A stretch of 64,000 nucleotides of DNA from Candidatus Poribacteria bacterium. Lineage in GTDB: Bacteria > Poribacteria > WGA-4E > WGA-3G. The stretch covers positions 3,168,001-3,232,000 of the forward strand of contig CBDANF010000003.1 in assembly GCA_965197475.1 (NCBI GenBank), in the 5' to 3' direction. Position numbers and translations under genes: made by a program. Below are positions 35,401-44,162 of this stretch, in pieces; position 1 is the first letter of the stretch; each line of letters begins with the position of its first letter. The notes under the pieces were generated by a model. It was not told the origin of the DNA, ran no database searches, and saw nothing but the letters and a program-made list of their open reading frames with translations.

Positions 35401-36468
35401 ATGATTATGAAAATATCAAAAATCTCTTTCTCTTTACTCATACTATGTCTAATTATCTTACCCTTAATCGCTTTCGCCGCTGATGAAGGGTCGCACGCAG
35501 CTGATTTTCTCAGCCATGGCGTGGGTGCGCGTGCGCTCGGAATGGGAAGCGCATTTGTTGCAATCGCTGACGATGCGACTGCTACCTATTGGAATCCGGC
35601 AGGATTGACGAAAGTCAAAAGACATAGTTTTTCTGCTATGTATTCCGATACCTTTAGTACTGGTGATGGCGGTTTTCTTAGCAAAGGCTTAGTTAACTAC
35701 AATTTCGTTAACTATGTCCATCAGATTGAGGATATCGGTAGCCTCGGTCTGAGCTGGATTCGACTTGGGGTTGACGATATACCGCGCACAACCTTTATTG
35801 ATGTTGATAATAACGGCTTTCTCGGCGATTATCAGGACATAAACGGCAACGGCACTAAAGATGAAGGTGAACCTTACATTGACAGACCCACAGTTGCGGA
35901 GTATTTCAGTAATACAGACAACGCGCTGCTTATCTCCTATGCCCGTCAAATACACTCGATTGCTGCTGTCGGTGGCAACCTTAAACTTCTTAACCAATCT
36001 ATTTTTGAGTACAGTGGAAACGGTTTTGGCATTGACATCGGTTTTATTCTGACACCGTATAAAGGTTTGCGGTTCGGTGCAATGTTGCTTGATGCCACTG
36101 GCACACAAATTCGGTGGGATACAGCAGATAAACCAACATTCACTCGCGGACGAAGACTACGATTTGGCGGAGCATACCAATTTACCTTTCCAAGTTTCGG
36201 CAAAGGCAGCATCGGCGCAGACTTTGAAACTGACCAAGGTGATTTGGAAGAAGGAACTGATACAGAGGGAGGAGTTGTCTTTCGCACTGGGGCAGAATAT
36301 TGGCTCTTCAACACACTTGCTTTGCGCTGCGGTTGGAATGGGCATGGATTTTCTGCTGGAACTGGACTCCAATTGCGTGTTAGCACTATGACGTTTTTTG
36401 TTGATTACGCTTTCAACACGCACACCCTCGGCGGTTCGCAACGTATCTCTGTCTCTGGGCAATTTTAG
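35401..36468 (+). CDS. PorV/PorQ-family outer-membrane beta-barrel (T9SS shuttle-like)
   Basis: Signal peptide; FL..GVGARALGMGSAFVAIADDATATYWNPAGL; C-terminal RISVSGQF. Confidence 0.85.
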   Translation: MIMKISKISFSLLILCLIILPLIAFAADEGSHAADFLSHGVGARALGMGSAFVAIADDATATYWNPAGLTKVKRHSFSAMYSDTFSTGDGGFLSKGLVNYNFVNYVHQIEDIGSLGLSWIRLGVDDIPRTTFIDVDNNGFLGDYQDINGNGTKDEGEPYIDRPTVAEYFSNTDNALLISYARQIHSIAAVGGNLKLLNQSIFEYSGNGFGIDIGFILTPYKGLRFGAMLLDATGTQIRWDTADKPTFTRGRRLRFGGAYQFTFPSFGKGSIGADFETDQGDLEEGTDTEGGVVFRTGAEYWLFNTLALRCGWNGHGFSAGTGLQLRVSTMTFFVDYAFNTHTLGGSQRISVSGQF

Positions 36469-36661: not shown

Positions 36662-39241
36662 GTGAAAAAAAGTTTGTTTTTTATATTTTTGACACTACTT
36701 TGTGTTTCAACGTTCTATCAACCCAACGTTTTCGCTCAAGATTCGCCGCAATGGCATCTGCCTGAAGGTGCTACAGCGCGTCTCGGCAAAGGCTGGCTAT
36801 ATGAAATTCAGTATTCGCCGGATGGCACACGACTTGCAGCTGCAGGCTGCCTCGGTATTTGGATTTATGACACCGCAACCGATGAAGAAATTACACTATT
36901 GACTGGATATGGATATGCCATTTCTGCACTTTCATATTCCCCTGATGGGAGCATTCTTGCAGGGGGCAGTGCGGATGGGGTCATCCGTTTATGGGATCCT
37001 GTAACAGGTGAAATCCTACAGACACTCGATCGACATTGGGCAAGTATCCGTAGCCTCGTTTTCAGTCCTGATGGGAAAACGCTCGCCAGTGGTAGTAGAG
37101 ACAGAACTATTCGACTGTGGAATCTTGAAACAGGCGAACTGCTACACACCCTAAGAGGACATACAGATGGTATCAACAGTGTTGCTTTCAGTGCTGACGG
37201 AAGCACGATTATCAGTGGTAGTCGAGATGATACGATCAGAATATGGGATGTTGCCACAGGAGAAGAGCTGCAAACACTTAAAGAACATCGAGATAATGTT
37301 GACAGTGTTGTGGTCAGTCCCGATGGTAAAACGCTCGCAAGCGGAGATTTGAACGCGCTTATTCATCTATGGGATACGACAACATGGACGATCAAGGACA
37401 CCCTTATCGGACATACCTCACATATCTATGACATGAAATTTAGTCCCGATGGCAGTATTCTGGCGAGTGCGGGTGAAGATGACACCGTCCGATTGTGGGA
37501 TGCAGCCACAGGCAATCACTTAAACACACTTACCGATCATACCGCTGATGTCTACGGACTTGCTTTCACGCCGGATGGCACCGTGCTCACAAGTGGTGCA
37601 TGGGATGCGTCAATACGTTCATGGGACCCTGTTACAGGTGAACATCTGGAGACTATCACTGGACATACTGATGCTGTTGTGAGCGTCACCTTCAGTGCTG
37701 ATGGTACCATCCTTGCGACTCGGAGTTGGGACAAAACTATCCGCCTCTGGGATGCGGATACGGGTCAACTTCGGCATACCCTCATCGGTCACCAAGATGA
37801 TGTTGACATTGTTGTGTTCAGTCCTGATGGCAGAACACTCGCAAGTGGTAGCCAAGACAACACCGTCCGATTGTGGGACGCACTTACAGGCGAACACATA
37901 AAGACACTCAGAGGACATTATTCTTATCTGATTAGTCTTGCGTTCAGTCCGGATGGTAGCATCTTGGCGAGTGGTAGTGAGGACGACAGCATCCGTTTGT
38001 GGAATGTTGCCACAGGTCGTTACATGGGCGGGTTGTGGGAGCATGAAGCAGGTGTTGAGACACTTGCGTTCAGTCCGGATGGCACTATGCTTGCCAGTGG
38101 TAGTCGTGACGATAAGATTATCTTATGGGACATGGAAACACGCGATGTTATACACACTATCAGCGAACATGAGGATGATGTTTGGGCAGTTGCATTCAGT
38201 CCGGATGGCACCATGCTTGCCAGTGGTGGTGGTGACAAGGTCTCCTTATGGGATGTTCAAACAGCGGATCTTCTTCAGACATTCCGCAGACCGATTGATC
38301 GCGAAATTCCAGTAGGCGCGCCGGAAGAATTGACTGGAGATGTACCCACAGATCTTCCTGCGAATGCTACAAGTATTGTTTTTAGTCCAGATGGTAAAGT
38401 ACTCGTTAGTGGCAGTTACGACGCAACTATCCGCTTGTGGGACATTGCAACTGGAGAGCAGCTTCATACACTTGAAGGTCACACATATTCTATCACTAGT
38501 GTGGCAGTAAGTCCGAATGGAAGCATAATTGCAAGCGGCAGTTTCGATGGAACAGTCCTTTTGTGGGCATTCCCACTCCCGATGAGTTTAAAGCAAGTTC
38601 TCACGGTATTCGCAGATGTGAACAACGACGGTGTACTGAATATATTGGATGTAGTGCTGGTTGCGTCAAGTTTCGGAGAAACTGGGGCCAGTCCCGCAGA
38701 CCTCAACGGTGATGGTATTGTCAATATTTCGGATCTCTATTTGCTTGTGAACGCATTGAGAAATATTGAATCTGCGCCTTCTGTGCAATCGCTTTCAAGA
38801 GAGCAACTTACTGCAGCGCAGGTGCAGGAGTGGTTAACGCTTGCTAAGCAAGTACCGTCACAAATCATCCATACCTCAGAGTCAAATCGACTTTCTTATG
38901 AACGAGGAATTCAGGTGTTGGAACAAATTTTGCAAACATTGGCTCCGCAAGAGACAGCACTGCTTGCTAACTATCCAAATCCGTTCAATCCTGAAACATG
39001 GATACCGTATCAGTTGGCAGCACCTGCCGATGTTAGCATCTCTATCTATGCTGCAGATGGTAGGTTAGTTCGGACGCTTGCATTAGGACATTTATCCGCT
39101 GGCACCTATCAAAGTCGCAGTCGTGCAGCGTATTGGGATGGCAAAAACGCTTTAGGTGAATCTGTTGTGAGTGGCGTGTATTTCTATACGCTTACCACAG
39201 GTGATTTCACTGCAACACGAAAGATGTTGATTCTGAAATAG
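36662..39241 (+). CDS. Secreted WD40-repeat protein with dockerin-like EF-hands and FlgD-Ig/T9SS-like C-terminal domain
   Basis: ~13 GH...FSPDG..LASGS.D.TIRLWD repeats; DVNNDGVLNILD/DLNGDGIVNISD; LLANYPNPFNPETWIPY...AAYWDGKN..GE.V.SGVYFY...TRKMLILK. Confidence 0.92.
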   Translation: MKKSLFFIFLTLLCVSTFYQPNVFAQDSPQWHLPEGATARLGKGWLYEIQYSPDGTRLAAAGCLGIWIYDTATDEEITLLTGYGYAISALSYSPDGSILAGGSADGVIRLWDPVTGEILQTLDRHWASIRSLVFSPDGKTLASGSRDRTIRLWNLETGELLHTLRGHTDGINSVAFSADGSTIISGSRDDTIRIWDVATGEELQTLKEHRDNVDSVVVSPDGKTLASGDLNALIHLWDTTTWTIKDTLIGHTSHIYDMKFSPDGSILASAGEDDTVRLWDAATGNHLNTLTDHTADVYGLAFTPDGTVLTSGAWDASIRSWDPVTGEHLETITGHTDAVVSVTFSADGTILATRSWDKTIRLWDADTGQLRHTLIGHQDDVDIVVFSPDGRTLASGSQDNTVRLWDALTGEHIKTLRGHYSYLISLAFSPDGSILASGSEDDSIRLWNVATGRYMGGLWEHEAGVETLAFSPDGTMLASGSRDDKIILWDMETRDVIHTISEHEDDVWAVAFSPDGTMLASGGGDKVSLWDVQTADLLQTFRRPIDREIPVGAPEELTGDVPTDLPANATSIVFSPDGKVLVSGSYDATIRLWDIATGEQLHTLEGHTYSITSVAVSPNGSIIASGSFDGTVLLWAFPLPMSLKQVLTVFADVNNDGVLNILDVVLVASSFGETGASPADLNGDGIVNISDLYLLVNALRNIESAPSVQSLSREQLTAAQVQEWLTLAKQVPSQIIHTSESNRLSYERGIQVLEQILQTLAPQETALLANYPNPFNPETWIPYQLAAPADVSISIYAADGRLVRTLALGHLSAGTYQSRSRAAYWDGKNALGESVVSGVYFYTLTTGDFTATRKMLILK

Positions 39242-39367
39242 TATCAAATGACCATAGGATAGCTGGAAGGCTGATGTTTATTGGCTTCCCAGCGATCGTT
39301 GATGAGTGGGTTGCGTTGGGATCGCGAGCATCCTCTTTGAGAAATGATGCGTTTAGCGATAAACGTG
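39241..39367 (-). ncRNA. Candidate structured non-coding RNA at the downstream end of the DUF1670 element
   Basis: Directly downstream of a near-consensus promoter; four consecutive stems: CGTTTA/TAAACG, GCATC..CTC/GAG.GATGC, GCGATC/GATCGC (22-nt loop), GGAAG/CTTCC (15-nt loop). Confidence 0.4.
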
Positions 39368-39372
39368 TCTAA

Positions 39373-39401
39373 AGTATAGCAAAACCAGTAGCGGTTGTCA
39401 A
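39373..39401 (-). promoter_or_regulatory. Near-consensus sigma70 promoter inside the DUF1670 element, facing the terminal repeat
   Basis: Minus strand TTGACA (39401-39396) - 17 bp - TATACT (39378-39373). Confidence 0.7.
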
Positions 39402-39468
39402 CCATATTTTCAAGGCACCTGCCCCGGTTTTGCGAAGTAAAGTTCGTCGGGAACATAGGATTAGGGTC

Positions 39469-40353
39469 TCATTGGGCTTCTCCTTGGTGAGTGGCTTCAT
39501 CGTTTGAGTCTGAATTGGCAAGGTCTGCATCTATGGCTTGGAGTTGGTGCTGCGGTATGAGGTCGAGATATTGAGAGATGACGCGTTTAGAAAGTCGTGT
39601 AATCTGTGAGATTTTATCAATATCTGCGGTTGCTTTCCGAACGACTTTGACGCTCTCATAATCGCGAATGTATCGGTCAACTGCCTCCTTAGAGTGTTTG
39701 GTCTTTGCGGCAATCCTGGGGGTGAGATGTCCTTGAAGATAGAGGGTTATGATCTCTTTCTTATGGGTAATAGCCCCCGATAAGTCATGGATATTGCCAC
39801 GGGTGGGCAAGAGTTCTCCAGTGGTTTTTTGCCATTCATTAACATAATCACAGACAACGGCATCGCAGACATTGAGCAAAACTGCCAAGTCGAGTTGTGT
39901 CAATAATGCCCCTTGGTCATAAGCTTGATGACACCAGCGGACCAAGCGATTGATCCGCAATTGCCGGGAGGTGAAACCGTTGCGAAAGGATTCAATATCC
40001 TCTGCGGCGAGGTAAGTCAGGATGACGGGTTTCATGCGGGTTTTGACGATGGACTTTCCTCTTTCTGGATGCTCTTCAATAGGGACGGCCATCCAAACGA
40101 GTTGTCCATAACTCAAGAAACGCTCATCCGGGAGTTGATCGCCGGTGGCGAGTTTCTCCAAAGGAAGGGTAATCACGAAATAGTCTTCAACGGTCTTAAG
40201 AATATCATCAACAATGGCGGTGGCAGTGACTTCGCCTTTGTCATAACCATAGTCATTGAGAAAGCGGTGAATGAGCAACTGTCGTAGGGACTTATCGTTG
40301 ATGCGTCTGAATTTCTTCTCGTTGATTTGCGTGCGGGTTAGAGGTTTGCTCAT
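39469..40353 (-). CDS. DUF1670-like protein (paralog B)
   Basis: QAYDQGALLTQLDLAVLL..., LPTRGNIHDL...THKKEIITLYLQG..., HSKEAVDRYIRDY; ATGA-coupled to the upstream paralog. Confidence 0.8.
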   Translation of the reverse strand: MSKPLTRTQINEKKFRRINDKSLRQLLIHRFLNDYGYDKGEVTATAIVDDILKTVEDYFVITLPLEKLATGDQLPDERFLSYGQLVWMAVPIEEHPERGKSIVKTRMKPVILTYLAAEDIESFRNGFTSRQLRINRLVRWCHQAYDQGALLTQLDLAVLLNVCDAVVCDYVNEWQKTTGELLPTRGNIHDLSGAITHKKEIITLYLQGHLTPRIAAKTKHSKEAVDRYIRDYESVKVVRKATADIDKISQITRLSKRVISQYLDLIPQHQLQAIDADLANSDSNDEATHQGEAQ

Positions 40354-41162
40354 GAGAGGTCCCCCTTTTTTGTGTCCTCAGGTTCTGGGTGAAGGAGTTG
40401 GGTCATGCGATCTGTGTGTTGGTATTCCTCATAGAGTGAGAGATACTCGCGGATCAACCGGTCAGATAGATGGGTGATCAGGCGTATCTGTGCGTTAGGA
40501 AAGCCTTGATGATGGAGCGTAGCGACTTGTGTAAAGTCTTTCAAGTAGCGGTAGACAGCTCGTTCGCTGTGGTTCGTCTTTTTCTCGATTTCGGTGAAGG
40601 TATAGGCTTTGAAATATAACTCCAGGACCTGGGTTTTATGAGAAGTGCCGGGGCCCATGTCGTGTTTCGTCCCGCGCGTCATAACGAAATACCCATCCTG
40701 CTTCAAGTGTCGAATGTCGCGTTTGACTGTAGCAGGACTGGTGGTTAATAATACAGCTAAATCCTCGTAGCTCAGTAAGGCATCTTGGTCATAAGCTTCT
40801 TGGGTCAATCGGAGGATCCGATGCCGTCTGAGTCCTGCGAGACCATAATTCGCTAAGACTTCAAGATCGGCGTTTGTGTCATTGAGAGTTAGCCGACAGG
40901 AAACTTTTTTCGCTAAAGCGATATGTTTACCTGCGGGTTCCTCTGCGGCGACTGCCTCGTAGCAGATTTGCCCTGATGTCAGGTGCACATCGGCGTGTTG
41001 TTCAAAGTAGGTGGAAATCTGTTTATAGTAGGCTTCAGCAACGAGAGGCATTAGATTAAAGTCTGCTGAAATCTTCTGAATAATCGCGGCTCTGGCATTC
41101 TTGGATTCGAGCCGAGTGATACCGTAAGCGGTATCCTTCTTGCGGTTCATATTGACCTCCAT
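40350..41162 (-). CDS. DUF1670-like protein (paralog A); probable start ATG 41150
   Basis: EAYDQDALLSYEDLAVLL.TS..TV.RDI, TRG..HDMGPGTSHK, HSERAVYRYLKDF; GGAGG RBS precedes 41150. Confidence 0.8.
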   Translation of the reverse strand: MEVNMNRKKDTAYGITRLESKNARAAIIQKISADFNLMPLVAEAYYKQISTYFEQHADVHLTSGQICYEAVAAEEPAGKHIALAKKVSCRLTLNDTNADLEVLANYGLAGLRRHRILRLTQEAYDQDALLSYEDLAVLLTTSPATVKRDIRHLKQDGYFVMTRGTKHDMGPGTSHKTQVLELYFKAYTFTEIEKKTNHSERAVYRYLKDFTQVATLHHQGFPNAQIRLITHLSDRLIREYLSLYEEYQHTDRMTQLLHPEPEDTKKGDLS

Positions 41163-41417
41163 GAATAGATTATCGGGGATCCGAGGACATCTACTCGTTA
41201 GTTTAACGAATACTAATAGTATAACTCATGGGGTCATTTGATACAAACTATAAGTAGCGGTCAGGGGTCAGTTTAGCACCGTTTTGCTAAACCATACACA
41301 AAATTGACAGTTATGGGTAGAGCGATAGCGAGACACGACATAGAGGCATTCGGCTATCGGCTGTCGGCCATCAGTCTTGTAGGTCGGGTAGAGTATGCGA
41401 AACCCATAGGCATCAAT

Positions 41418-42075
41418 TTAGTGATTTTTTCGCGATATTTGATCTCCTTGATGCGTTTTTGGGTCTCCTGTTCGGAAAGTTTTTGAGCCACCAAGCGCGC
41501 TTGGATACGCTTTGTTTTCCCAACAGCGACTTGTATTTCGCAAGTGTGTGGTTTGGGTCTTGAGCCATTTTAGTAAACAAAATGGTGTTTCTGCGTCGTC
41601 AAAGAGAGAACAATCAACTTTCAACTGTGTTATCCAAAAGACACCTGCCTCGGAAAGTTTTCCGAGGGTGTCAAGTGAAAAATAATCGCGATCTGCCAGA
41701 CGTAAACGCCCCGGTGTCCGCATCGGCATCTGTTTTCAGCCGTGCAATCCTGTGTGGTACCATCAGTGAATTGAAAGTGTTCAAAAGTGCCAGTGGCAAC
41801 ATCAAAGTGGTTTTCAAGGTCGATGCAGCTTCGGGCGTGAAACGCTGTTCAATCGCCTGTCGTATGATAGGTGTGCCGAGAACACCAGCGGTTTGGGCAA
41901 GTTCGGTATAGGTTGCATCTGGACTTGCTAACCAAGTGAAAACAAGTGTCTCAACAAACCGACTGCCTGTGAGTTTACGACTTCTTTCAACAAAACCATG
42001 TTGATGTGCGGTTTCATCGGCAGTCGTTGTTAGAATCTGTTGCATTTTATTGGGAACCTGTGATAATGTATACAT
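41418..42075 (-). pseudogene. IS4-family transposase remnant
   Basis: A..A...GFVERSRKLTG..F..TLVF..L, QAIEQRF and LADRDYF...GVFWITQLK motifs; deleted and frameshifted. Confidence 0.78.
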
Positions 42076-42127
42076 TGGAAACACCTCTTTTGTAGAAGTA
42101 AAATGTAGTTTTTCTACACTATATAAT

Positions 42128-44162
42128 AGACATTATAATGAATTAAATAGAAGGAGTTTCATAACGCCAGGGTCTGAAGTTTAGGCGAAAATTGTGTAAA
42201 CCACAACAGGTTTCCATAACTAAATCACAAAACCCTTTCTTCCAATTCCTGAGTTTATCTTTGACAATGCGGCATCTTTTGACACCACTAATCGCATGTT
42301 CAACGCGTATGCGTATAGACGCTATCTTTCTATTGTTTTCTTTTTCTTCATTCGTCCGTTCTCTACCTCTCGGTTTTTTCTTCGGTTGAATGATGTTTAT
42401 ATCCGGGAGAACGAAACCCTGAAAACCGGTATCTTGGGACAATGTGCTACCCTGTGGCACACAATAGCCCACCATATCGGCTATGTGTTTGTCATGGTGT
42501 CTTCCTTCAAAAGAGGGTGTTAATAGGACAACTTTGCAGGCCTCATTGATAATCAGATTATTTTTCACTGTATGACATTTCTTTTTACCACTATAATAAC
42601 CCTTTTGAGTTTGTGGGTCTTTGGGGCGTCGTATCGGGCGTTCGGTGCTATCATGAAAAAAATGTTCTCCTTCTTGATTTTGAGTTGATACTTTTGATGG
42701 AGCACATATAGGTGCGGGGTCTGTTTCCCGAGATGGCAACTCTCCAAGTTCTGCTAATGCTTTGTTCAATATCGATAAAAGCAAGTGAATCCATCTATTA
42801 GCAAGAGGTTGAGACATGCCAAAGAGCGCACCGAATAGCACTTGTTTCGGTGCTTCACGAAGGTAAATCAGTATAAATAGCAACATATCTTCAGGTGTAT
42901 CAAAACGACTATTTTTATACGGTTTATATCTCCGTTTTTTGCGCGGTTTTCCTGCAAGGGTATGTGTTTGAACATACTCTAAAAAACATTCGCTCATGTC
43001 AAGAGTAAGTGCTTTTGACGAGTTTTGCTATAAAATCAACACTGACAGCTTTTAGATTCATGACGAACTCACAGATTGCGACGTAACCGGCGAGGAACTT
43101 TTTATGAACGCCACGAAAGGGACGAAGGAAGTTTCGCAGCGTCGTCCAGACACCTTCAATCGTCCTTGTATGGATCTCGTAAAGACCATCACCGTCTGCG
43201 TCTCTTGCCCACTCGCCATCCTTATGGAGAACAATCTCACGGGCGCGCTGAATACGGTTATAGCCACGCCAACCATCCGTATACACCGTTGAAGTCGGCA
43301 ACGTCCACTGATGAACGTGTGTTGAAAGCGTCGCAGAATCGGTGTGCCGCACAACACGTAATCTCAGGAGACCGCTTTCGCGACCTTTCGTCCCAACAAT
43401 AGGCGGACGATCATTGTCATAAGTCCCATGTCCCCTGCGTTTATTGCCACGCCGACGCGGCGGATCCGAAGCATCAACGTGCTTATCGCCTTTTTCACCG
43501 GCGTTTTGAAACATCTCATCTGTTTCGACTTCAGCATCAGGTAAAGCAGCTTCGGGTTGTATCTGCTCTGCCGAAGTTTGGAGTTTACGTCTTATAGAAA
43601 GAACGGTTTGACGACTTAGACCCAGTTCACACCCGAGTTGTGCACTTGAAACACCTTGACAGACACCGCGCAAAAGCAGAACGACCTGTGAGGGACGAAA
43701 CTGCGTGCCAGCAAAGACCGTCCCGGTATAGAGGTTGTAGATGCTCTCACAGTGTTTGCAGCGATACACTTGTAGACCACTTGTTTCAGTCGGACGGAAC
43801 TTGCGTGCCTCCGCCACGCTCGCTTGGCATTTTGGGCAACACAGCCCTTGAAGGTGGAAATGATCCAACACCCACGCTTGAGTTTTTTCTTCATCCAGGA
43901 GAGATTGTATTGGAAAGTCCATAGGTAACACGCTAACATAACTTTGAAAAAATAGCACTTACTTTTTACATGAGCCAAAACATTTAGTAAAATAAGGTGA
44001 TAGTTCAGTCCAATCTTCTAAGGTATATCCGGTGAGGGACAGGAGCGTATCAGGTTTGTCCCTTAGTTCTTGAAAACTTATCATGAGTTAGCCTCCTATT
44101 GTCCGATTGTAATAAGTATAATAGAGACTAACCAAACGGACAACTAATTAGTTATAATGTCT
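42128..44162 (-). mobile_element. IS5/ISL2-group (DDE_Tnp_4/HARBI-like) element; transposase 44084 to 42143 interrupted by IS1595
   Basis: TIR AGACATTATAA/TTATAATGTCT; DSTE.PI.RP, YSGKKKCHT, DTGFQG and RIRVEHAISGVK motifs. Confidence 0.85.
42991..43976 (-). mobile_element. IS1595-family IS (986 bp), copy 2, with 8-bp TSD AAAACATT (transposase 42999-43958)
   Basis: Near-identical to copy 1 (3 aa differences); TSD at 42983-42990 and 43977-43984. Confidence 0.93.

Follow-up and report, generated by a model that had tools for sequence, protein, structure and literature searches.

The locus considered here raises the question of how a unit of two genes, with no recognisable transposase, comes to lie exactly on the end of another gene. 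It is part of a 64,000-nucleotide stretch of a Candidatus Poribacteria genome (positions 3,168,001 to 3,232,000 of contig CBDANF010000003.1; hereafter, the window). A WD40-repeat gene is followed there by two open reading frames (ORFs), orfA and orfB, which belong to the DUF1670 family, share an ATGA overlap, and are the sole genes between the two arms of a 13-bp inverted repeat, GTATCAAATGACC and GGTCATTTGATAC. An earlier note on this DNA had read the arrangement as a mobile element resembling an insertion sequence (IS) without recognisable transposase. This reading is borne out by multiple copies, identical ends, and deletion derivatives: the segment from 39236 or 39238 to 41251 is one of about 20 copies of a site- and orientation-specific insertion element whose genes are two DUF1670 paralogues. 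The element has been recently active, and the family that it represents is undescribed so far.

The genome of the window (G000) comprises 5.7 Mb on three contigs and is 92.7% complete, with a contamination of 6.97%. It carries 18 full-length copies of the DUF1670 element at different loci, which are 92 to 100% identical: four copies, the window copy included, agree at 100%, five at 99.5 to 99.95%, and nine at 92 to 97%. In addition, the genome holds one internally deleted copy and one copy resembling a miniature inverted-repeat transposable element (MITE), the latter being 432 bp long and joining element positions 1–151 to 1719–2004. All 20 share the same end bases, and these 18 full and two derivative copies supply the multilocus copies with identical ends that the earlier note had expected of such an element. 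The 13-bp repeat of the window is exact, as that note had described it, and confined to copy ends. The 13-mer GTATCAAATGACC has 38 exact and two one-mismatch matches in the 5.7 Mb, all of which are ends of the 20 copies, and genome-wide outside the copies, there is no exact and a single one-mismatch match. Matches with two mismatches number 110, against approximately 126 expected by chance according to our estimate, and no convincing inverted pair occurs among those outside the copies. A search by 13-mer and inverted pair found no other element with the same ends in this genome. All 39 matches to the Pfam family PF07900 lie inside element copies, and similarity between copies stops at the termini, with no cotravelling gene. 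Two generic marks of an insertion sequence are, hence, present: several unrelated loci of one genome hold copies bounded by the same, defined ends, and there are inverted repeats, here a perfect 13-bp core plus the tips ATAGT and ACTAT. For its own movement, the element offers two genes only, both under purifying selection and neither with a recognisable catalytic domain.

The repeats had been taken for the boundaries of the element, which needs correction: they are subterminal, and the termini lie at about 39236 or 39238 and at 41251. Beyond the 13-bp repeat, conserved sequence extends for 5 nt on the left and 7 nt on the right. The element thus spans either 39236–41251 (2016 bp, no duplication) or 39238–41251 flanked by a 2-bp AA; in the first case, the left terminus AAATA is element throughout, and in the second, it consists of an AA target duplicate (39236–39237) followed by ATA. 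To the right of the terminal AAACTAT, 19 of the 20 copies continue with AAR and then TAA, TAG, or TGA, the variation being synonymous only. AAG and AAA occur there in a ratio of 14:5, which compares with 14:7 at 21 unoccupied sorting-domain gene ends of the same genome; after none of these 21 ends does AAACTAT occur. The Lys-stop to the right of 19 of 20 copies and a codon ratio like that of unoccupied ends, therefore, show that, natively, the host gene terminates on the right-hand side of the element. For the window locus, the expected empty site reads ...CTG + AAGTAG.... The empty allele predicted earlier, ...CTGAAATA joined to AAACTATAAG..., is wrong since the true ends lie further out. The claim that there is no target duplication stands for anything beyond 2 bp and leaves a possible 2-bp AA; at most this AA is duplicated or shared. 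Two longer or different duplications were considered and dropped: a TA duplication, because empty REP hairpins (see below) have no TA at the junction, and a 5-bp AAATA duplication, which conflicts with the unequal left and right pentamers of two among the four 100%-identical copies.

The host genes define the target. In the product of the WD40 gene, a type IX secretion system (T9SS) sorting domain makes up the last 87 residues, and the present Lys-stop of this gene (AAA TAG, 39236–39241) comes from the left tip of the element; the left repeat does begin at the last base (G, 39241) of this TAG, as had been pointed out. The left flank codes for a sorting-domain C terminus (...TRKMLIxK) in 18 of the 20 copies and is open over 100 codons in 16 of them. 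When ten flanks were tested, all ten scored above the FlgD_ig cut-off and seven above that of Por_Secre_tail. Altogether, 51 TIGR04183 gene ends were detected in the genome, and 16 of them abut a copy. The open frames at occupied ends range from 82 to 3498 aa. Orientation is fixed at all copies, with the element genes antisense to the host gene. Insertion takes place directly 5′ of the last Lys codon in T9SS sorting-domain genes; the left tip AAATAG rebuilds the Lys-stop, and the host ORF stays whole.

The same address is used in other genomes. Out of 79 further loci examined, both ends were found by script in 63, nine of which were mispaired and set aside, leaving 54. The left junction AAATAG is present in 57 of the 63 loci, and the right side of the 54 shows a Lys-stop in 43 (42 by pattern, one by eye), a site resembling a repetitive extragenic palindrome (REP) in five, and another or unclear sequence in six. 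Elements in metagenome-assembled genomes of Ignavibacteria, KSB1, and Bacteroidetes encode an orfA that is 61 to 68% identical, yet feature the same core, the same AAATAG junction, and gene ends of the type ...KKMxLLK; the end motif is, hence, kept across phyla, and conserved ends across related DUF1670 pairs, for which the earlier note had proposed a survey, do exist.

A sister lineage targets the loop of a REP-like hairpin in place of sorting-domain gene ends. Of the six copies in G035 and G026, which are Poribacteria of another family, five are held by such a hairpin. The occupied sites read GAAGAAATAG...ACTATAAAAAACTCGG, that is, ...GTTTTGAAGAAATAG-element-ACTATAAAAAACTCGG. Empty hairpins of the form GAAGAAAAAACTCGG / AAACCGAGTTTTGAAGAAAAAACTCGGTTT were found 72 times in G035 and 34 times in G026, against none for a reversed control. 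Comparison of empty with occupied hairpins fits a 0- or 2-bp duplication and excludes TA. Together with the unoccupied sorting-domain gene ends, these 72 and 34 hairpins represent paralogous empty sites. The earlier note had named three findings that would speak against it, namely a lack of terminal repeats, a lack of multilocus copies and empty sites, and an accompanying transposase, and none of the three was made. The hairpin family, AAACCGAGTTTT-GAAG-AAAAAACTCGGTTT (loci L041–L056 of G035 and G026), is often arrayed at a spacing of about 160 to 490 bp. In two neighbouring hairpins of G035 (C1:1973077 and C1:1973528), the loop is longer by 11 nt that resemble the right tip of the element, and this insert could be an excision footprint or the remnant of a solo end. 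A guide or target mimic in the hairpin loop of the left end (GATGTTTATT against the target GATGTTGATT, noticed by eye) was rejected as it is not conserved in Ignavibacteriales elements using the same kind of target.

Table 1. Positions in the window of the DUF1670 element, its host gene, and adjoining features.
Feature	Position	Strand	Remark
Host WD40-repeat gene with C-terminal T9SS type A sorting domain (residues 771–857)	36662..39241	+	TIGR04183 39.9 bits, cut-off 23; FlgD_ig and Por_Secre_tail on the last 100 aa
Left terminus AAATA	39236..39240	.	20/20 copies; with G at 39241 reads AAA TAG
Left-end region of about 100 bp	39236..39340	.	retained in MITE-like derivatives (element positions 1–151 in that of G000, about 100 nt in those of G023); presumed cis requirement for movement
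Left subterminal inverted-repeat core GTATCAAATGACC	39241..39253	+	only at copy ends in the window genome; kept in Ignavibacteria, KSB1, and Bacteroidetes elements
Sigma-70-type promoter TTGACA-17-TATACT, TG upstream of −10 (TGcTATACT)	39373..39401	-	11/12 matches plus TG
orfB, DUF1670 paralogue, 294 aa	39469..40353	-	invariant YGYDKGE motif in the N-terminal domain; loop LLPTRGNIHDLS
orfA, DUF1670 paralogue, 270 aa	40350..41162	-	translation probably begins at the second ATG (41150), for 266 aa as in homologues
Right subterminal inverted-repeat core GGTCATTTGATAC	41232..41244	+	exact reverse complement of GTATCAAATGACC
Right terminus AAACTAT	41245..41251	.	20/20 copies; outermost ACTAT mirrors ATAGT of the left tip
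Displaced native Lys-stop of the WD40 gene, AAG TAG	41252..41257	+	host sequence, right boundary of the element
Degraded DDE_Tnp_1 fragment	41418-42084	-	
IS5-family DDE_Tnp_4 gene	42143-42997		
IS1595-family gene	42999-43958		

Both ORFs match PF07900 (DUF1670) with 209.9 bits for orfA and 208.3 bits for orfB (E of about 1e-62; gathering cut-off 25), which confirms the family assignment made in the earlier note, and their weaker Pfam matches are to helix-turn-helix (HTH) families. They are indeed paralogues that overlap by ATGA, with 35% identity over 192 residues (E 1e-27). The ratio of nonsynonymous to synonymous substitution rates (dN/dS) lies between 0.04 and 0.15 (orfA 0.09–0.15; orfB 0.04–0.08) in seven comparisons, the most distant being with 77%-identical elements; both genes are, hence, under strong purifying selection. 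Among the 18 full copies, 13 carry ORFs of 270 and 294 aa, one carries ORFs of 269 and 294 aa, one features an in-frame A–B fusion of 564 aa, and three have an altered orfA; two full ORFs are thus kept in 14 copies, and orfB measures 294 aa in 17. Natural fusions are found elsewhere as A–B proteins of 529 to 559 aa and as triple-DUF1670 proteins of 930 to 952 aa. The longer relatives carry no added catalytic domain: all long representatives scanned (five of five and nine of nine) are DUF1670 fusions only.

The AlphaFold2 model of orfA, which is confident (predicted local distance difference test score, pLDDT, 89), features a small α/β N-terminal domain with a helical N terminus and a β-hairpin, a long helix, a winged HTH, and a further pair of HTHs; the orfB model is poor (pLDDT 65). 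The positions that are conserved in orfB as well as in 90% or more of 83 diverse A-type sequences include D99, R118, Q126, D134, the pair R163-G164, H175, H198, Y206, and Y240; R163 is present in all 83. Some of these residues may contact DNA. Prediction of an orfA–orfB heterodimer gave scores of 0.27 and 0.29 against a mark of 0.32, at which the tool returns no answer, and this neither supports nor opposes binding. A feature-based cluster search with orfB retrieved only HTH-like archaeal clusters (scores ≤0.81).

Downstream of orfB, the element carries a noncoding end. A strong sigma-70-type promoter on the minus strand (39401–39373) points outward through the left end and, once integrated, would read antisense into the host gene; a promoter scan found none upstream of orfA within the element. 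The TATACT −10 box recurs in all 30 nonredundant 3′ noncoding regions, taken from 56 loci, while the adjacent sequence diverges. The 228-nt region downstream of orfB has no Rfam match at E ≤ 1, and its single-sequence fold reaches z = −2.35. A structured RNA in this place was dropped as a candidate for the window lineage since 22 diverse ends, folded jointly with RNAalifold, reached −0.67 kcal/mol and showed no truly covarying helix. A 20-nt inverted match of 80% connects 39366–39385, in the region of the outward promoter, with 41281–41300, which lies beyond the element in its right flank; this match may be due to chance or be a scrap of the end of another element.

The distribution of DUF1670 is patchy and multicopy. 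It occurs in 46 of 176 Poribacteria species genomes (38 of 133 of high quality), with one pair to at least 15 matches per genome. Among 1.84 billion cluster representatives, 1,252 proteins match at E ≤ 1e-3, and Methanosarcina acetivorans, used as a control genome, also carries DUF1670. Many homologues come from contigs about 2.0 kb long, as is usual for collapsed repeats. A search of a plasmid collection returned no orfA relative. Shortened forms also occur: of the element, MITE-like copies retain about 100 nt on the left and about 80 nt on the right, and they are sited at further sorting-domain gene ends. In the same-genus genome G023, such ends carry three or more MITEs, each about 443 bp long, whose interior is unrelated to the full element. 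A deletion derivative joining 39386 to 41217 is present in the contigs of two public runs of one study, the kind of run not being on record and taken as DNA. Two metatranscriptome runs of one study likewise have contigs with element sequence, which is not evidence of transcription.

To our knowledge, every characterised prokaryotic transposable element uses DDE/DEDD, HUH, serine, or tyrosine enzymes. The explanation preferred here, which as a whole we hold to be somewhat likelier right than wrong, is that of an autonomous element with the DUF1670 pair as its own recombinase for site- and orientation-specific insertion. A role of the DUF1670 proteins in recognition is strongly implied, and catalysis by orfA and orfB themselves is a finely balanced proposition, about as probable as its opposite. 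Their role is inferred because they are the only genes in the element, because of their dN/dS of 0.04 to 0.15, because of the natural fusions, and because of the HTH-array models. As multi-HTH proteins, orfA and orfB would act as a hetero-oligomer that binds the 13-bp subterminal cores—presumably its binding sites—pairs the ends, and selects the target. The same complex would carry out breakage and joining via a catalytic centre yet to be recognised, with D99, R118, D134, R163, H167-D168, H175-K176, H198, and Y206 (orfA numbering), all kept in both paralogues, as candidate catalytic residues. Recombination would be conservative and fixed in orientation, taking place at the shared AA between the target and the palindromic junction (GGTCATTTGATAC-12 nt-GTATCAAATGACC) of an excised circle. 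The invariant, nonpalindromic AA, the fixed orientation, and the near-zero duplication fit such conservative recombination, as in IS110 and IS607, and not staggered cutting by a DDE enzyme. The outward promoter near the left end would then drive orfA–orfB across the circle junction. In its widest form, the proposal makes DUF1670 a fifth class of DNA transposase or site-specific recombinase: a winged-helix/HTH hetero-oligomer that cuts and rejoins DNA, is spread over bacteria and archaea (about 1,250 clusters at 50% identity), can be retargeted between gene end and REP hairpin, and has its expression gated by the outward promoter across the circle junction. We put this generalisation forward tentatively, as being slightly more probably wrong than right.

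A number of results weigh against the autonomous reading. Pfam and NCBIfam show no catalytic domain in orfA or orfB, the matches being limited to DUF1670 and HTH families; neither protein is covered by an NCBIfam model, and the same library names the adjacent IS5 and IS1595 transposases, both of which are detected by Pfam as well. A profile search against PDB sequences returned only HTH regulators and one designed repeat protein. Foldseek with the orfA model gave no match at E ≤ 0.001 in PDB and BFVD, the top matches being winged-helix arrays (SelB, MntR) with a query-normalised TM-score of at most 0.19. As for the known enzyme classes, neither ORF is matched by a Pfam or NCBIfam DDE model, orfA has no Foldseek match to an RNase H fold at this threshold, and for a serine or tyrosine recombinase or HUH domain there is no Pfam, NCBIfam, PDB-sequence, or fold match. 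The invariant TRG sits at the wing position of the modelled winged helix, so that it may be conserved for DNA binding rather than for chemistry. On the genomic side, no orthologous empty site was found when the flanks of relatives' copies were compared with the window genome, or when both flanks of one 100%-identical copy (C3:3736918-3738921) were sought in 30 same-genus genomes; in each search, only one flank was syntenic. Neither a circle junction nor a precise-excision joint is among the joints listed from four public runs, which are assembled contigs broken at repeats and hold 25 further joints outside this list; the circle and the junction-promoter steps are pure inference. Finally, five genomes of the same genus (G007, G013, G014, G017, and G023), one of them a single contig, contain MITE-like copies or solo left ends and no DUF1670 gene, and two MITEs of G023 are 98.2% identical. 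Such MITEs may have been moved by another factor, or the master copy may have been lost or not assembled.

Part of this evidence would be accounted for if the DUF1670 pair gave specificity only and a host enzyme, such as a Xer-type tyrosine recombinase, a topoisomerase, or a repair nuclease, were recruited for the chemistry. This is the main rival, which we consider unlikely, if well worth keeping in mind. It agrees with proteins that are HTH and winged-HTH arrays without a nuclease or recombinase fold, as judged by the searches and the orfA model, with the persistence of MITE-like copies in genomes lacking DUF1670, and with the palindromic two-arm site that abutted ends would form and that would resemble a recombinase substrate. 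Integrative mobile elements exploiting Xer (IMEX) make use of XerCD in this way. Against this rival, elements that exploit Xer insert at the single dif site, whereas dozens of gene ends are targeted here. Moreover, the family spans distant bacterial phyla and Methanosarcina, so that the recruited enzyme would have to be near-universal, and the His, Asp, Arg, and Tyr residues kept in both paralogues exceed what plain DNA binders usually keep.

If, instead, the element were nonautonomous, an unrelated conventional transposase encoded elsewhere would move its ends, and the DUF1670 genes would be passengers, for example regulators. No transposase was found inside the element, the genome is IS-rich with IS5- and IS1595-family genes adjoining the window copy, the five relatives just named carry MITE-like copies and no DUF1670, and with 92.7% completeness, a partner could lie outside the assembly. 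The end motif, however, is found on no other element of the window genome, two-mismatch matches and pairs being at chance level, and the adjacent IS genes (IS5, IS1595, DDE_Tnp_1) have no link to other copies of the DUF1670 element, as similarity ends at the termini. Passengers would also not keep a dN/dS of 0.04 to 0.15 for the two genes alike, over numerous copies and in different phyla, alongside an unchanged 13-bp core. Movement by a foreign transposase is, hence, judged improbable. The probability becomes close to negligible for the view that the cassette is no transposon and owes its spread to duplicated sorting-domain genes or to homologous recombination via their coding sequence. The left flanks are in fact paralogous, with 65 to 80% identity over about 250 bp, and some copies have only one flank in common with another, while one copy has flanks that lie far apart in relatives; from one-flank sharing and separated flanks, it follows that recombination between copies does occur. 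As the sole route of spread, it is contradicted by four 100%-identical copies whose flanks are only about 70% alike. Right flanks are unrelated past the Lys-stop hexamer, host genes differ in length and content, two of the 20 copies and the whole G035 lineage occupy sites other than sorting-domain genes, and MITE derivatives sit at further gene ends. Setting these alternatives beside the autonomous element with its own DUF1670 recombinase, the latter is retained.

Comparison with known systems places the DUF1670 element near several families and inside none. The IS110 family—its IS1111 subgroup and the REP-targeting IS621—likewise features subterminal inverted repeats, little or no target duplication, and a fixed nonpalindromic dinucleotide; strict site and orientation specificity, including REP-like hairpins (here in the G035 lineage), and a long noncoding end near a promoter are further likenesses. 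In contrast to IS110, the DUF1670 element has no match to a DEDD/RuvC-like or Tnp domain, encodes two HTH-array proteins in place of one recombinase, and shows no trace of a bridge RNA in Rfam or as conserved structure across the 22 diverse ends. Tn7 resembles it in using, via TnsD at attTn7, the conserved 3′ end of a coding sequence as address, in its orientation specificity, and in sparing the host gene (a safe harbour). However, the Tn7 site is about 25 bp past the end of glmS, 5 bp of target are duplicated, and TnsABC+D are required, whereas the DUF1670 element lies at the last codon itself, rebuilds the Lys-stop, and has dozens of paralogous targets per genome; within its ends, only the two DUF1670 ORFs are found and no TnsA, TnsB, TnsC, or TnsD/TniQ. 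With IS630/Tc1-mariner, the element shares an invariant 2-bp target (TA there, AA here), small size, inverted repeats, abundant MITEs, and tandem HTH modules, which here are weak HTH_23/28/29-like matches. It differs in having no match to a DDE/RNase H domain, a longer and orientation-specific target context, and two paralogous proteins. The defining catalytic feature of the IS110, Tn7, and IS630 families is absent from the DUF1670 element.

The Pfam version used here describes PF07900, to which both ORFs belong, only as a "Protein of unknown function" and makes no link to mobile DNA. A full-text literature search found no paper on DUF1670 or PF07900, and broader searches gave nothing relevant either, though ISfinder or supplementary files may hold a listing; of the papers retrieved on Poribacteria and insertion sequences, none concerns a DUF1670 element as judged by title or abstract. 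The system described here provides an annotation for PF07900 and accounts for many of the 2-kb orphan contigs in metagenome assemblies. Either DUF1670 holds a new catalytic class, or a small element borrows a host enzyme at many sites; a system of two genes and 2 kb makes both readings directly testable. About a third of the T9SS cargo genes of the window genome carry a copy on the last codon with the frame preserved. This represents a natural safe-harbour insertion that is addressed by a conserved coding motif, and it is a possible scaffold for programmable insertion.

Some copies deserve separate mention. In C3:685919-687923 of the window genome, and also in L115, a 1-bp change fuses orfA and orfB, the former having the frame of 564 aa mentioned above. 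The copies C2:1160548 and C3:845190 have the right flank in common and C2:1472043 and C3:49950 the left flank, the other flanks being different; these pairs suggest that copies have exchanged sequence, that segments were duplicated, or, given the contamination of 6.97%, that strains are mixed in the assembly. The copy C3:3736918-3738921 (L001), one of the 100%-identical ones, lies at a site that is not a sorting-domain gene. Its flanks map at least 168 kb apart in same-genus genomes (in G020, for example, at 1.757 Mb versus 1.588 Mb), and it probably marks a rearrangement by recombination between two copies.

To the right of the window copy, the region 41258–43958 is a pile-up of other IS remains. 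On the opposite side, a gene of the PorV/PorQ family (35401–36468; NF033709, 117.6 bits, cut-off 90) lies just upstream of the WD40 T9SS cargo gene.

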